From assembly GCA_047285805.1 (NCBI GenBank), contig JBJBCN010000003.1:608001-672000 (forward strand): a stretch of DNA of 64,000 bases, written 5' to 3'. Under the pieces are notes generated by a model. That model was not told the origin of the DNA. It did not search any database and saw only the letters and a program-made list of their open reading frames with translations. Of the stretch, positions 4,778 to 33,830 are shown one piece after another. Source of the DNA: Synechococcus sp. (GTDB taxonomy: Bacteria > Cyanobacteriota > Cyanobacteriia > PCC-6307 > Cyanobiaceae). The translations under genes and the position numbers were made by a program. Numbering within the stretch: position 1 is the stretch's first letter; every line of letters starts with the position of its first letter.

Positions 4778-6486
4778 AGCAGGAAGTAGCGTTGAGCCAT
4801 GGGCAGCACCTCAGCGGGTTCACAGCTGAGCAGTTCTCCGTTGGCAAAGACCTCGTAGGTCTGCGGGTCGACCTCCACTCGGGGCAGGGCTGTGTTGTTT
4901 TTCATCGCCGCCTTGCCGATGCCTCCGCGGGTGTTCAGCACTGGAACGCAGAGGCGCTCGAGCCCTAGTTTTCGGGGTAGATCGCCATCGAGTGCTGCTT
5001 GGCTCACGAAGGTGAGGCAACTGGGGGCCAGTGCCTTGCCGAAGGCCGCGAACATAGGCCGTCCATGGACCGGTCCAGGTGTGGGGATCGAGGCGTTGGC
5101 GTCACCCATCTGGGCCCAGACGATCGAGCCCCCTTTGATGACGAGCTCCGGTTTCACGCCAAAGAAACCGGGTTTCCACAGGACCAGGTCCGCGAGCTTG
5201 CCGACCTCCACGGAACCGACCTGTTGATCCAAGCCATGGGCGATGGCGGGGTTGATCGTGGTCTTGGCGATGTAGCGCTTTAGGCGGGTGTTGTCGTTGC
5301 GGCTGCTGTCCTCTGGTAGGGCGCCCCGCTGCACCTTCATCTTGTGGGCGGTCTGGAAGGTGCGGATGATGACCTCGCCAACGCGGCCCATGGCCTGGGA
5401 GTCGCTGGCGATGATCGAGAAGGCGCCAATGTCGTGAAGGATGTCCTCGGCGGCGATCGTCTCGCGCCGGATACGTGACTCGGCGAAAGCCACATCCTCC
5501 GGGATCTTGGGATCCAGGTGGTGGCACACCATCAACATGTCGAGGTGTTCCTCGAGGGTGTTGCAGGTGTAGGGACGGGTGGGATTGGTACTGCTTGGCA
5601 GGACGTTGGCTTCACCGCAGATCTTGATGATGTCCGGGGCATGGCCGCCGCCCGCCCCTTCGGTGTGGAAGGTGTGGATGGTGCGGCCGCCGATGGCGCG
5701 AATCGTGTCTTCGACAAACCCCGCTTCGTTCAGCGTGTCGCTATGTATGCACACCTGCACATCCAAGCGATCGGCCACGCTTAAACAGCAATCGATGGCA
5801 GCCGGCGTAGTCCCCCAGTCCTCGTGAAGCTTGAGCCCGCACGCCCCGGCGTGGACCTGCTCTTCAATCGCCTCCGGGGTGGCGCCGTTGCCTTTGCCGA
5901 AGAACCCGAGGTTCACGGGTAGCCCCTCGGCGGCCTGCAGCATCCGGCCGATGTGAAAGGCCCCTGGAGTGCAGGTGGTGGCGTTGGTTCCCGTGGCAGG
6001 TCCCGTGCCGCCCCCCAGCAGCGTCGTCACCCCACTGGCGAGGGCCGTTGCGATCTGCTGGGGGCAGATGAAGTGAATGTGGGTGTCGATCGAGCCCGCC
6101 GTAAGGATGTGCCCCTCCCCGGCAATGGCTTCGGTGCCTGGGCCCACGACGATGTCGACCCCTGCTTGGGTGTCCGGGTTGCCCGCCTTGCCGATGCCGC
6201 AGATGTGGCCATCGCGGATGCCGATGTCGGCTTTGACGATCCCCCACCAATCAAGAATCAGGGCGTTGGTGATGACGGTGTCGACCGCTCCATCGGCGCG
6301 GGTGATCTGGGCTTGGCCCATGCCGTCGCGGATGACCTTGCCGCCGCCGAACTTCACCTCATCGCCGTAGACGGTCAGGTCCTGTTCCACCTCGAGGATC
6401 AGCTCGGTGTCCGCCAAACGCAGACGATCGCCGGTGGTGGGGCCGTAGGTCTCGGCGTACTGACGGCGTGAAATGCGGTAGGGCAT
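4774..6486 (-). CDS. ureC: Urease alpha subunit
   Basis: [40 protein letters not shown]. Confidence 0.99.
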
Positions 6487-29523: not shown

Positions 29524-29997
29524 CTAGCGACGTCTCCCCATTCGTGGCATCGGGTCCCCGTCCTGCAAGAGGTGCAGCCAGGCGCTGGCTTCGATCCCGA
29601 TCAGGCCAACCAGTAGCAATCGTTCTGGCCGGCTCCACTGCTGCTGGAGCCATCTCAGCAGGTCCGTGCTGGCATGGGGGTGGGCAAGGCCCGTCAGCAG
29701 TAGGGCGAGGCCGGTGAGGTAGCCCACGCGCACCAGGGTGCCCAGCACCGGGGAGTGGGACAGAACCGAGCGATGGCGCAGGGCCTTCCGGTAGGGCCAC
29801 CACAACCAGCGCAGCGGCCCCCAGCGCTGGTACGGCCGGGAGTTGGTGTCGAGATCGGGGGAGAGCCAGAGGCCTCCGATCAGGAAGGCCAGGGCGCTCA
29901 CGAGTGTTCCGTTGGGGCCCAACCAGGGCCACCAGAGCAGCCCATAGGGCAGGGCCAGCCAGCAGGTGGCGCGGTCGTGTTGCTGTCCGCTTGCCAT
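29524..29997 (-). CDS. Putative metal-binding membrane protein (DUF2227-like)
   Basis: SG..HD, LSPDLD, HRS.LSH, WLHL..D. Confidence 0.85.
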   Translation of the reverse strand: MASGQQHDRATCWLALPYGLLWWPWLGPNGTLVSALAFLIGGLWLSPDLDTNSRPYQRWGPLRWLWWPYRKALRHRSVLSHSPVLGTLVRVGYLTGLALLLTGLAHPHASTDLLRWLQQQWSRPERLLLVGLIGIEASAWLHLLQDGDPMPRMGRRR

Positions 29998-30035
29998 TGC
30001 TGGGGGTGAGTGCTGCCCTGCAGAATGCCTTAGCC

Positions 30036-30107
<72 letters not shown>

Positions 30108-30192
30108 TAAGGCCAAACTCCTGTTTATTCATGGGTTTTCTTTTGTTCGCTTACTCCCCGAAAGAGTTGGCAATGCGATCACCTAGCGCAGG

Positions 30193-31104
30193 ATCCTCTT
30201 CCGCCGACCTAGTAGCTCCCCGCTACTGAGCGGTGGGTCGGGGAGCTGTTGCCTGTTTTCACAGACGTTGCCATAACCCCAGAGGACGAGACGTGAACTC
30301 CTCGATCCGTGTGGCGGCTGTGGGCACCCAGCCGCCTACCAACACCCTCCCGGCGCTTCTCTATCTGAAGCCGGAAGGGCTGTTGGGCGTCACCCCTCTT
30401 CCTCTTCCCAGCGCAAACGTCGGTGAGCAGTGCACAGCTCACACCTGCACGGCAATGAAATGTCGCCGCCGATCCAACAGGTATAAGGGGTGGTCGGCCA
30501 CAAGAGGGCTAAGTCCTCGTCGCTTGGACGGGCTATGAAGGTTGTTTCCACTCACGAAGCCTGCGCATAGATCAGTGATGGCTCCGGTTGCAGTTGAGCT
30601 GGCGTCTTAGGCGATACATCTCTGATGAAAGTGCCACCTAGAGCCAGGGGCCTAAGACCTCCTGGACTGGACTCAGAGACGAGCAGCGCTCAGTTTCATG
30701 CCAACCGCGACCACCTAGCTGGCCTGGAAGACGGGTCAGCAGGCGTGATTGATGTGTAAGCGCCGCTACCCGGAGATGTTCCAAGGAACTGGCGATGATC
30801 GAGAGCGCTGGGGATTGATGTGATCCCACTGACATAAACGAAATCGGCAACCGTTCGTCATTCCTTTACTGGAGAGTGTGCAACCCCGCCTTCGGCTTCT
30901 AGCTTTGCCTCAGTTCCACAAAGACTTGATTGAACTGACTGGCTACACGCTGGACCGCTGGGATCTACATGGCGTCCCCTGTAGCTGTCAGCAGTGCACG
31001 GACGACTACGAAGCACTGCGGGTGATGCACTTGATCAGGACAAGCGTTTTCTGAGCAAAGCCTCTTTGGGAGGCTGTGCCAGTTAATTGCGGTCGGTAAG
31101 AGAT
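30193..31104 (-). ncRNA. Candidate large, highly structured non-coding RNA (~910 nt), family unassigned
   Basis: About 15 nested stems found by eye, complementary termini, plus-strand A.C mismatches that read as G.U on the minus strand, a GAAA tetraloop, no convincing ORF. Confidence 0.6.
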
Positions 31105-31159
31105 AAGTAGTCATTAACGCACTCCATGCCTATACCTTTTGGAGCAATAGCCGACTCGC

Positions 31160-31411
31160 ATGCAGCTCAATGTTGAAAAGGGTCTGATCGGGGCAGCTGT
31201 CCTTGGGGCTCTTCTTCTTATGGTGCCAATAGCCAAGCAATCTAAAGAGTTCGTGAACTGCGTCAAGAACGCAGAGACTGGGATCATCAACCTGGCGGGC
31301 GTTGAGTTCACTGACGTGGATGGCAAAGGCGGCTTCATCGAGCGACCCGTGGCCGTTCACTACTGCAACGGTGGTGATTTAACCAAGTACCTGAAGCTGT
31401 TGGGTCACTGA
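31160..31411 (+). CDS. Small membrane-anchored hypothetical protein (AVHYCNGG motif)
   Basis: GGAG upstream, N-terminal hydrophobic helix, two Cys; coupled to the next gene via TGATG. Confidence 0.7.
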   Translation: MQLNVEKGLIGAAVLGALLLMVPIAKQSKEFVNCVKNAETGIINLAGVEFTDVDGKGGFIERPVAVHYCNGGDLTKYLKLLGH

Positions 31412-31572
31412 TGGAATGGATCGTCCGGCCCATTCGCGCCGTCTTTTTCGCTGACGAGCAAGCCTTTCTTTGGATCAAAAAGAAGCTTGGCTTCACAGAT
31501 TACCAAATGGCAGCTCTCGTCTGGGTGAAAGGCCTCATAATTGGCTTGCTTATCGGCTACTTCCTTTTCTGA
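31411..31572 (+). CDS. 53-aa small membrane protein (below the ORF-track cutoff)
   Basis: MEWIVRPIRAVFFADEQAFLWIKKKLGFTDYQMAALVWVKGLIIGLLIGYFLF; ATG overlaps the upstream TGA. Confidence 0.7.
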   Translation: MEWIVRPIRAVFFADEQAFLWIKKKLGFTDYQMAALVWVKGLIIGLLIGYFLF

Positions 31573-31577
31573 TCACG

Positions 31578-31823
31578 ATGAAGGTCTTGCTTGCGGCTGC
31601 ACTATTGCTGGCATCGGCCTCACCTGCACTTGGCCAGAAGGAGATCCCCAAGGCTGAAGGCCATGACCAGTGCCCACTGGGCTATGTCAACACGCTTGGA
31701 ACAACCTGCGTCTCACCCATCTATTACGAGGTGGCTCCAACCCACGGCAAGGCATGCCTTGAGGGCTGGATGAATATTGGCGCTGGCTACTGCAAGAAGA
31801 AGGGGCCTCTCGGAATCCTCTGA
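31578..31823 (+). CDS. Small secreted four-Cys protein
   Basis: Signal peptide MKVLLAAALLLASASPALG; CPLGY...C...C..GW...GAGYC. Confidence 0.75.
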   Translation: MKVLLAAALLLASASPALGQKEIPKAEGHDQCPLGYVNTLGTTCVSPIYYEVAPTHGKACLEGWMNIGAGYCKKKGPLGIL

Positions 31824-31853
31824 TCAACGACTATGTGAGGCACTACAGCTCCT

Positions 31854-31877
31854 GATTACCTCAAGGGTGGTCTTTTT
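31854..31877 (+). terminator. Intrinsic terminator of the islet small-gene operon
   Basis: GATTACC/GGTGGTC stem then TTTTT. Confidence 0.55.
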
Positions 31878-32134
31878 GTAGGTGTTGTTGTCTTAGAGGG
31901 TGTAGCCCTTGCTTTCAATACAACGGTTGTAGGCCTTGTCCCCGTACGTCTCTTCGGCCTTGGCTTGAGCAGGCAGCATCGCCAAAGCGTTGGCAGCAGC
32001 TGCGAGCAGAATTCGTCTACTGGTGAGTGGGGTAGGTGGCGTGATCAGCGCTGAATGCAGACGAAGTCCTATCCGTTGAGCGTGCGTTTGTATTGCGTCA
32101 CCCCTTATTTCGTAAGGGCTTCCGGTGTGCCTGG

Positions 32135-32251
32135 TCAAACCAGCTGGGCCAGTTCAGCAGCAAGACGAACAGCACCCACAGCAGCCCCGAGCTGATTCGA
32201 GGCCATCGCCTTCTCTTGAACCTTGGCGAGGGCGGCAAGCTTTTCTGCCAG
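32135..32251 (-). pseudogene. 5'-truncated gene remnant abutting the att-like repeat
   Basis: LAEKLAALAKVQEKAMASNQLGAAVGAVRLAAELAQLV-stop; no plausible start for the full helical stretch before the tRNA-derived repeat. Confidence 0.5.
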
Positions 32252-32283
32252 GATGTCGCTGGTTCGAACCCGGCACCGGGCAT
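32249..32283 (+). repeat. att-like copy of the tRNA-Val 3' half
   Basis: CAGGATGTCGCTGGTTCGAACCCGGCACCGGGCAT identical to 30074-30108. Confidence 0.97.
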
Positions 32284-32291
32284 CAACGTTG

Positions 32292-33830
32292 TTAGTGAGC
32301 TGAGGACAGCTCACCTCCGCGGCCGCCCGCCTCTTCCGCCACGCCGATCCGGGCGAACAGGTTCAGGCTCTCGTCGTTCAGGTTGATCACCTCGACTTGG
32401 GTGCCGCCGAGCTTGAGCTTGCGGATGACCTGATCGAGGGCGGTCACACCGCTTTGATCCCAGATGTGGGCCTCGCCCATGTCGATCGTGACGCGAGCGG
32501 GATGCTCGTGCAGCTCAAAGCCCTGCCGGAAGTAGATGCTGCTGACGAAGAACAGCTGACCGCGGACGCGGTAGATGCGGTGCTCGCTGCCGCTGAGCTC
32601 GCTGCTGACCTCGATCACCTTGGCTACCTTGCGGCTGAAGAGGATCCCCGCCAGGGCTACACCGGAGAGCAGGCCCACCGCCAGGTTGTGGGTCAGCACA
32701 GTCACGACCACTGTCAGGAGCATCACCGAGGTGTCGCTCCTGGGGATGCGGCGGATGCTCCGGATCGAATCCCAGTTGGCGGTGTTGATGGCGATCATCA
32801 CCATCACCCCCACCAGGGTGGCCATTGGGATCTGATTGACCCATTGGCTGGCAAGCAGGATCATCGCCAGCAGGCTCACGCCCGAGGTGAGGGTGGAGAG
32901 GCGGGTGCGGCCGCCGTAGCCCACGTTCATCACCGATTGGCCCACCAGGGCGCAGCCGGCCATGCCGCCGAAGAACGAACTAATGATGTTGCCGATGCCT
33001 TGGCCGCGGGCTTCCTGGTTTTTGTGGGACGAGCTGTCGGTGACGTCGTCGAGGATGTCCTGGGTCAGGAAGGTTTCCATCAGGCCCACCAGGGAGATGG
33101 CCAGGGCTGTCGGCAGGATCAGGCCCAGGGTCCCCGTGGTGAAGGGAACCTGCGGGATGCCGAATTGGGGCAGGCCGCTCGGCAGGGTGCCAAGGCTGCT
33201 CACGGTGGGCACGTCGAGGCCCATGCGAATGGAGATCCCCGTTGAAATCAAGATCGCCATCAGGGCTGAAGGAACGACCTTGGTGAAGCGCGGCATCACG
33301 TAGATGATCACTAGGGTCAGGGCCATCAGGCCCCAGACCTCAGGCAGCTGCCCCGCGGTGACCGCCACCTTCTCGGGGTGGAAGAAATCAAGTCCCAACT
33401 GGGGCAGTTGCGCCAGGAAGATCAGGATCGCCAGGGCGTTCACAAAGCCCGCCATGACCGGTTGGGGCACAAAGCGCATCTGGTGGGCAAGCCGTAAATA
33501 GCCCCAGGCGATCTGCAGAACACCCGTCAGGATCCCGGCCGCCAGCAAGTACTGCAGGCCCATGCCTTCGCCCAGGGCGTTGCCCTGCTCCACTAGCCCC
33601 GTCATCAGCAGGGCGGTGGAGCCCGTGGCCGAGGTGATCATCGCGGTGCGCCCGCCGAAAACCGCGAGGGTCACCGACAGCATGAAGGCGCCGAACAGGC
33701 CGACCCTCGGGTCCACGCCGGCGATGCCGGAGAAGGCGATGGCCTCCGGGATCATCGCGAAGGCCACCACCAGGCCCGAGAGGATGTCCCGATGGGGCTT
33801 GCCCCACCATTCTTTGAGGGCGAGATTCAT
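32292..33830 (-). CDS. SulP/SLC26 inorganic anion transporter with STAS domain
   Basis: [34 protein letters not shown] 33830. Confidence 0.93.

Follow-up and report, generated by a model that had tools for sequence, protein, structure and literature searches.

Positions 30193-31104 of the window (the 64,000-nt stretch of a Synechococcus contig that was analysed, to which all positions refer unless a contig is named) are very probably the left half of a 2.2-kb islet that lacks an integrase gene, and form a patchwork of modules repeated in other islands of the same genome. Read from left to right, this half consists of a truncated copy of a hairpin repeat (A/B), a small gene that is intact and lies on the minus strand (gene C), a spacer of ~200 nt and a decayed small gene on the plus strand (gene D). 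An earlier note had read the same stretch as one ~910-nt ornate non-coding RNA, and its modules turned out to be independent of each other, with different copy numbers and different partners, two of them coding and on opposite strands.

The islet is bordered by a tRNA gene and a fragment of it. ARAGORN placed a tRNA-Val gene (anticodon TAC), the integration target, at 30036-30107 on the plus strand (Rfam tRNA, 72.2 bits). Its 3′ end forms an attL-like 35-bp direct repeat (30074-30108, plus strand; repeat family D1), which is 100% identical to an attR-like partial tRNA copy at 32249-32283, also on the plus strand. The two copies match exactly, lie 2175 nt apart and enclose 2.2 kb, of which the islet body (30109-32248, ~2.1 kb) is strain-specific and carries no recombinase gene. 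The G+C content of the islet is 0.52-0.58 as against 0.63-0.70 in the flanks, with a fall from ~0.65 to 0.52 between the tRNA copies. In two other genomes, G023 and G036, tRNA-Val is followed directly by the sequence that the window has 3′ of the right repeat, i.e., the site is empty, and the G023 flanks are 93-95% identical to those of the window. A third genome, G062, has a different island of ~17 kb at the same tRNA-Val(TAC) site, with a partial tRNA before the same flank. As the site is empty in two genomes and occupied by another island in the third, the insertion is specific to this strain, and its site is used by other strains as well. The proposal that the region is cargo of a tRNA-integrated islet was borne out by the exact 35-bp tRNA repeat, the G+C drop and the empty sites, and as the tRNA 3′ end recurs at its far border and relatives have the site empty, the islet belongs with the tRNA-anchored islands and islets. 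The G062 island was seen at loci L044 (G062:C1:1696162-1699724) and L048 (G062:C1:1713739-1716784), and its partial tRNA copy is 46-53 nt long.

The layout suggests that a site-specific recombinase placed the islet in the 3′ end of tRNA-Val(TAC) in a marine Synechococcus. This recombinase would either have been encoded elsewhere and acted in trans, or have been lost since; all eight PF00589 matches in this genome lie outside the islet. The same genome contains a partial tRNA-Ala(GGC) copy 21 kb from the gene (C2:144260-144302) and two partial tmRNA copies 9 and 19 kb from ssrA (C2:1330468-1330515 and C2:1340006-1340043), the latter accompanied by two integrases. These partial tRNA-Ala and tmRNA copies mark tandem islands in the same genome.

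Searching the whole islet against its own genome by blastn gave 24 non-self matches, which fell in separate blocks, and a search with 30108-31159 gave 21 matches, self included. Within the region, 30216-30251 has ~12 copies (86-94% identity), 30236-30388 has 5 to 7 (70-83%), 30379-30586 has 3, and the block that starts at 30817 or 30889 and ends at 31061 has 4 further copies (74-87%). Hairpin A is joined to B, to C or to other sequences in different copies, and the repeated modules cluster in the larger tRNA- and tmRNA-anchored islands of the genome. Between the divergent genes C and D lies a unique spacer (30613-30816, with nested stems at 30585-30707), whose part 30637-30816 matches nothing else in the genome, either as DNA or as six-frame protein. 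A single locus at C2 ~1316.5-1317.0 kb covers 30216-30636, with similarity stopping near 30620. It includes a tract, gene C plus ~60 nt upstream (30386-30612), that is 100% identical to C2 ~1316.55-1316.79 kb: 25-nt bins are 25/25 identical over 30400-30599, identity is ~78% on the A/B side, and there is none beyond 30625. This 225-nt identical tract supports assembly, or refreshing, of the left half by recombination with other islands. Judging from sequence identity, it is probably a recent recombination or conversion tract, by which gene C would have been copied. DNA matches to the region were found in three of 36 genomes of the same genus and in none of 24 genomes from other families.

The claim that the region holds no convincing ORF proved wrong, as genes C and D both lie inside it and show conservation at the protein level and a codon-position bias. 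Gene C (30390-30551, minus strand) has a GTG start and encodes 53 aa with the motif PTDxxLA...TLHTRW...CxCxxCxxxRRxRW. A tblastn search with its product found nine loci in its own genome, among them one copy without any difference, two that are closer and five that are distant (29-38% identity), all sharing PSDEELA...HTRW...CxCxxC...RRxRW; six of the nine are intact and three are broken. With a HMMER profile of five C paralogues, searched against 1.84 billion cluster representatives, we obtained 43 clusters at E ≤ 1e-3, 15 of them at E ≤ 1e-10, with matches mostly of 50-90 aa; a word-index protein search, unlike this full profile search, returned no homologue of gene C. Across 26 aligned members L14, C35, C37, C40 and R44 are invariant, and the in-frame pN/pS of gene C is 0.34 (N-terminal part). 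AlphaFold2 models the protein as two helices with a mean pLDDT of 77, the C-terminal helix being basic, and a search of the ESM Atlas with a C homologue was uninformative (best score 0.79). Outside the window, at G000:C2:1349397-1348112 of this genome, a tyrosine integrase frame opens next to the tmRNA gene (c[1349332-1349641]) and is followed, 3 nt past its end, by a C paralogue (C2 1348282-1348112, minus strand). The operon-like arrangement of integrase and C hints that family C may be an accessory of island recombination.

Gene D (30905-31054, plus strand) is a decayed copy of a ~54-aa family with the sequence MxKFHKDxxELTGYTLDRWDLHGVPCSCxxCTxxYExLRVMQL... and is preceded by a conserved leader (30817-30904, plus strand) that starts with ATGTGATCCCAC, could be aligned in five copies and is 87% identical to C2:1136388-1136144. 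The frame is open in all five copies of this genome (pN/pS 0.31), differences fall by codon position as 80/58/161, and the frame has no stops, as against 12 and 14 in the other plus-strand frames. Two metagenome proteins are homologous to gene D (63% and 67% identical to the window copy). In the window a 1-nt deletion between 31029 and 31030 gives the product 8 different residues at its end. The window copy also has no partner ORF; three of the other four copies have this small ORF after the D stop, and the fourth (C2 1136 kb) has a candidate in another frame. The window copy of gene D is thus probably decaying and may be dead. Just past its stop there is a hairpin, AGCCTC/GAGGCT (31059-31075, plus strand), with a perfect 6-bp stem and no T run. 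Gene D and its partner ORF (e.g., MDIEEADERLASGWHVDP...SPQRRR...) make up a two-gene module at C2:886745-887670, C2:285271-286265 and C2:1136301-1135377 (minus strand). Genes C and D would be read divergently, out of the unique spacer.

An exact look-up among called proteins, with starts as given, found neither C nor D, and their absence there is probably the reason that the stretch looks free of genes. To the right of the region, three cargo ORFs of 83, 53 and 81 aa (31160-31823, plus strand) are annotated as proteins in public collections, where their clusters hold 1, 166 and 16 members; a terminator-like hairpin follows them at 31854-31872. The clusters of 166 and 16, formed at 90% identity, belong to the plus-strand ORFs at 31411-31572 and 31578-31823 and come mostly from marine metagenomes; one such cluster member is a 'hypothetical protein' of Synechococcus sp. 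AH-601-B19. Within 31707-31802, part of the sequence recurs with 78% identity at C2:270253-270348. A candidate 81-aa ORF on the minus strand (31893-32138) faces the right repeat and gave neither an exact look-up match nor a family match. Genes C and D and the cargo ORFs had no meaningful match in Pfam, NCBIfam or PHROGs. Far from the islet, window positions 6045-6335 (plus strand) gave a full-length Rfam match to 5_ureB_sRNA (RF02514; 140 bits, E 5.6e-37), a family antisense to the start of ureB; we take this match to reflect conservation of the urease gene, probably not an sRNA.

The left end of the region belongs to a repeat. Hairpin A (30214-30251, plus strand) is the last ~40 nt of a ~165-nt island repeat, the rest of which is missing in the window, and is followed by module B (30252-30388), a non-coding repeat that forms one small hairpin (30251-30266) and two strong ones (30313-30336 and 30339-30386). 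An nhmmer profile of A/B found seven full and 16 partial copies in the own genome and more in G023 and G062. Extending the partial copies gave the ~165-nt consensus, which has three hairpins and a sharp end at GCTGTTG (examples in this genome are C2:544820-544988 and C2:298729-298897); what lies past GCTGTTG varies from copy to copy and may be B, directly the 3′ end of a gene C copy, or some other shared sequence. At 18 metagenome loci (L069-L086) that carry hairpin A, eight have the repeat with only the first half of B and ten have the repeat alone. DNA matches to A/B occur in two of 44 other genomes of the genus, and the repeat overall in three of 45. Six-frame analysis of module B gave no frame under purifying selection (pN/pS 0.50-1.86, with 1- and 2-nt indels), and a metagenome copy runs into a stop once 10 codons of the GTG frame have been read. 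In five loci with fuller repeat copies Rfam reported the tRNA only and no match to the repeat. Phage records, searched by blastn in distant mode, gave no match, and an exact 30-mer of hairpin A was found neither in viral contigs nor in a genome-contig collection, which may omit near relatives, as G023 carries the 30-mer. A limited literature search found no described Synechococcus island repeat or RNA of this kind, and one may still be in print. An origin of the repeat from tRNA or tmRNA was rejected, the only matches being of 9 nt and by chance.

We then asked how much structure the region holds. The 15 arm pairs that had been listed in it all lie at the stated positions. Complementarity is perfect, in the form listed, for 11 of them and imperfect for 30439-47/30478-86, for 30449-55/30463-69, for 30732-45/30761-72 and for the ends (30195-209/31091-103). 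The folding energy of the whole 912 nt is -370.3 kcal/mol (z -3.66) for the plus strand and -366 kcal/mol (z -3.31) for the minus strand (20 dinucleotide shuffles per strand), about equal on the two. Four 912-nt controls of the same window, namely the transporter gene past the right repeat, the ORFs upstream of the tRNA, an uncharacterised stretch further along and the rest of the islet, gave z-scores of -2.91, -1.18, +0.04 and -0.26, all of them above those of the region. Perfect 7-bp inverted repeats number 18 as compared with 8.1 +/- 3.6 in shuffles, four of 500 of which reach 18, as do 11 of 70 other 912-nt windows of the 64-kb window. The excess structure, followed in 150-nt windows, lies in 30250-30449, 30600-30749 (plus strand only) and 30950-31099. 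In local stretches, with 200 shuffles each, the two hairpins at 30300-30392 gave z -3.22 on the plus and -4.34 on the minus strand, 30936-31085 gave -1.55 and -2.46, the hairpin A stretch 30205-30255 gave -1.85 on the plus strand, and the nested stems at 30580-30712 did not beat their shuffles (-0.83 and -1.31). The folding excess is thus confined to two places, one of ~90 nt in module B and one of ~150 nt at gene D. The expectation that the region would fold better than shuffled controls held for the whole of it on both strands, but one of the four controls reaches -2.91 and the excess is patchy; the structural excess is real, yet only moderately unusual. Several of the listed stems fall within the ORFs of genes C and D, and the dense stems are the repeat's own hairpins, chance or coding palindromes in C and D, and a spacer that folds like its shuffles.

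Compensatory change was examined in two alignments. For ten A/B copies RNAalifold gave -18.4 kcal/mol with a covariation term of +0.47. With the named window hairpins imposed on these copies, 73% of cells are paired and the covariation score is 0.145 versus 0.123 in shuffles, a value that 22 of the 500 shuffles attain, and in many cases a departure does no more than break a pair; the compensatory changes that the earlier note would have looked for in homologues are therefore few in A/B. For the ~165-nt repeat, 36 copies were aligned (19 from this genome and 17 from G023 and G062). With a structure named by hand, 81% of cells are paired, there are 24 double changes versus 11.7 expected from shuffles (reached by none of 500), and the covariation score is 0.130 versus 0.102 (reached by one of 500), counts in which related sequences can exceed shuffles without any structure. 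This excess of double changes lies mostly in helix 1, which is missing from the window copy. RNAalifold on the 36-copy alignment returned only three pairs, probably due to gaps.

These results bear on whether structure gives the A/B repeat (30216-30388) a function in its own right, such as that of a 3′-UTR or terminator-like stabiliser, a small RNA or a DNA site at which modules are joined, a reading compatible with the mosaic and in our judgement rather unlikely. In its favour are the strong folding of 30300-30392, better by 3 kcal/mol on the minus strand, the start of the strong hairpins 3 nt after the gene C stop, the three other loci in which hairpin A directly follows a gene C copy, the sharp 3′ border with different modules beyond it, the double changes in helix 1 of the longer repeat and the recurrence of hairpin A in metagenomes. 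Against it, a scan of 30108-31160 found neither promoter nor terminator, with no T run after any hairpin; covariation in the ten copies is weak and pair-breaking changes are many; the neighbouring genes of the copies vary in kind and orientation; neither an integron integrase nor TnpB nor a Y1 transposase is present in the genome to act on such a DNA site; and the matches are confined to three genomes of the genus. If the element did act in RNA, the two strong hairpins (30313-30386) might end or stabilise the minus-strand transcript of gene C, a role we put forward tentatively from their position. Bolder, and improbable, is the idea that the ~165-nt repeat is a functional island junction, acting as structured RNA or single-stranded DNA, at which modules would be swapped at GCTGTTG by a recombinase other than that of integrons, with family C as a possible partner.

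The patchwork of repeated modules also has to be weighed against a decayed gene. An ORF-poor kilobase beside a tRNA could be what is left of the islet's integrase gene, and this is where one would expect it, since a tyrosine integrase gene of this genome starts beside the tmRNA gene. When the islet was compared with the genome's four best integrase ORFs, the best tblastn match had an E of 0.16 (29% identity over 79 residues), contained an internal stop, was not collinear with the other weak hits and overlapped gene D and its leader, which we do not consider a credible match. It also lies on the strand opposite to the usual tRNA-integrase layout of this genome, and A/B, C and D account for most of the kilobase, making an integrase remnant very improbable. 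The least probable reading, and one that is largely refuted, is a single ~910-nt minus-strand ornate RNA comparable to GOLLD or ROOL, for which speak the whole-region z-scores, the many real stems and the position next to a tRNA in mobile DNA, but which is contradicted by two conserved protein-coding ORFs on opposite strands, by modules whose histories differ, one of which is 100% identical to a second locus for 225 nt and no further, by a middle 200 nt without a homologue anywhere searched, by strands that fold equally well, by long-range and nested stems (30580-30712) no better than shuffles, and by the lack of any Rfam match.

With the 4227 models of Rfam 15, run at gathering score and at E ≤ 10, no RNA family was assigned to the region, and over 29900-32500 only the tRNA was found, all other matches having E of at least 0.017 and scores far below gathering. 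Homologues were found for the separate modules and none for the whole 910 nt as one unit. The region resembles GOLLD, ROOL and HEARO in its location in mobile DNA near a tRNA and in its many stems. It differs from them in having no covariance-model match, in coding on both strands, with conserved frames where such an RNA should have none, and in not being conserved as one unit with convincing compensatory changes.

The repeat, too, invites comparison with described elements. REP and BIME are repeats of bacterial intergenic regions, and like them the A/B repeat is short, non-coding, multi-copy, hairpin-forming and intergenic, with pieces that combine in a modular way; unlike them it has a different sequence, is found only in islands of a few Synechococcus genomes and occurs in a genome with no Y1-family transposase. 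An element derived from IS200/IS605 (PATE or omega-RNA) was rejected, as PF07282 and PF01797 have no matches in this genome, which is 100% complete. Similarity to integron attC sites is seen in hairpin A, an imperfect palindrome bracketed by CAAC...GTTG, with different modules right after GTTG and small ORFs around it. Its palindrome of ~44 nt is shorter than known attC sites, its copies are not arrayed in one orientation and the genome has no integron integrase; a link to integrons was accordingly rejected (TIGR02249, best 25.8 bits against a cut-off of 265).

The islet itself is most similar to the remnants found in picocyanobacterial islands. A paper on Prochlorococcus tycheposons describes degenerated elements and scattered partial tRNAs in islands, as the traces of successive integrations, and names seven island tRNAs (bioRxiv 10.1101/2020.12.28.424599). 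Compared with what is set out there, our islet is alike in its position at a tRNA gene, with a full and a partial tRNA copy and a cargo of small genes, and its genome is like those of Prochlorococcus in having larger islands, further partial tRNA and tmRNA copies and integrases. Unlike tycheposons, which as autonomous elements have their own recombinase and usually a replication module, it has neither an integrase nor a replication gene, its ORFs being without a Pfam match; it is only 2.2 kb long, and its host is Synechococcus, not Prochlorococcus. The stretch is an ordinary island remnant devoid of an integrase.

The main value of this analysis is negative: a high-scoring candidate for a large RNA is a patchwork of small genes and repeats and is not worth pursuing as an ornate RNA. 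It also brings to light two small protein families in the islands of this genome, one of which, family C, has 43 public clusters and no curated family. Many of the module junctions are marked by a hairpin repeat that is restricted to the lineage and sharply bordered. With its site empty in relatives and 225 nt shared without a mismatch with another island, the islet illustrates cleanly how small modules move between islands of marine Synechococcus.
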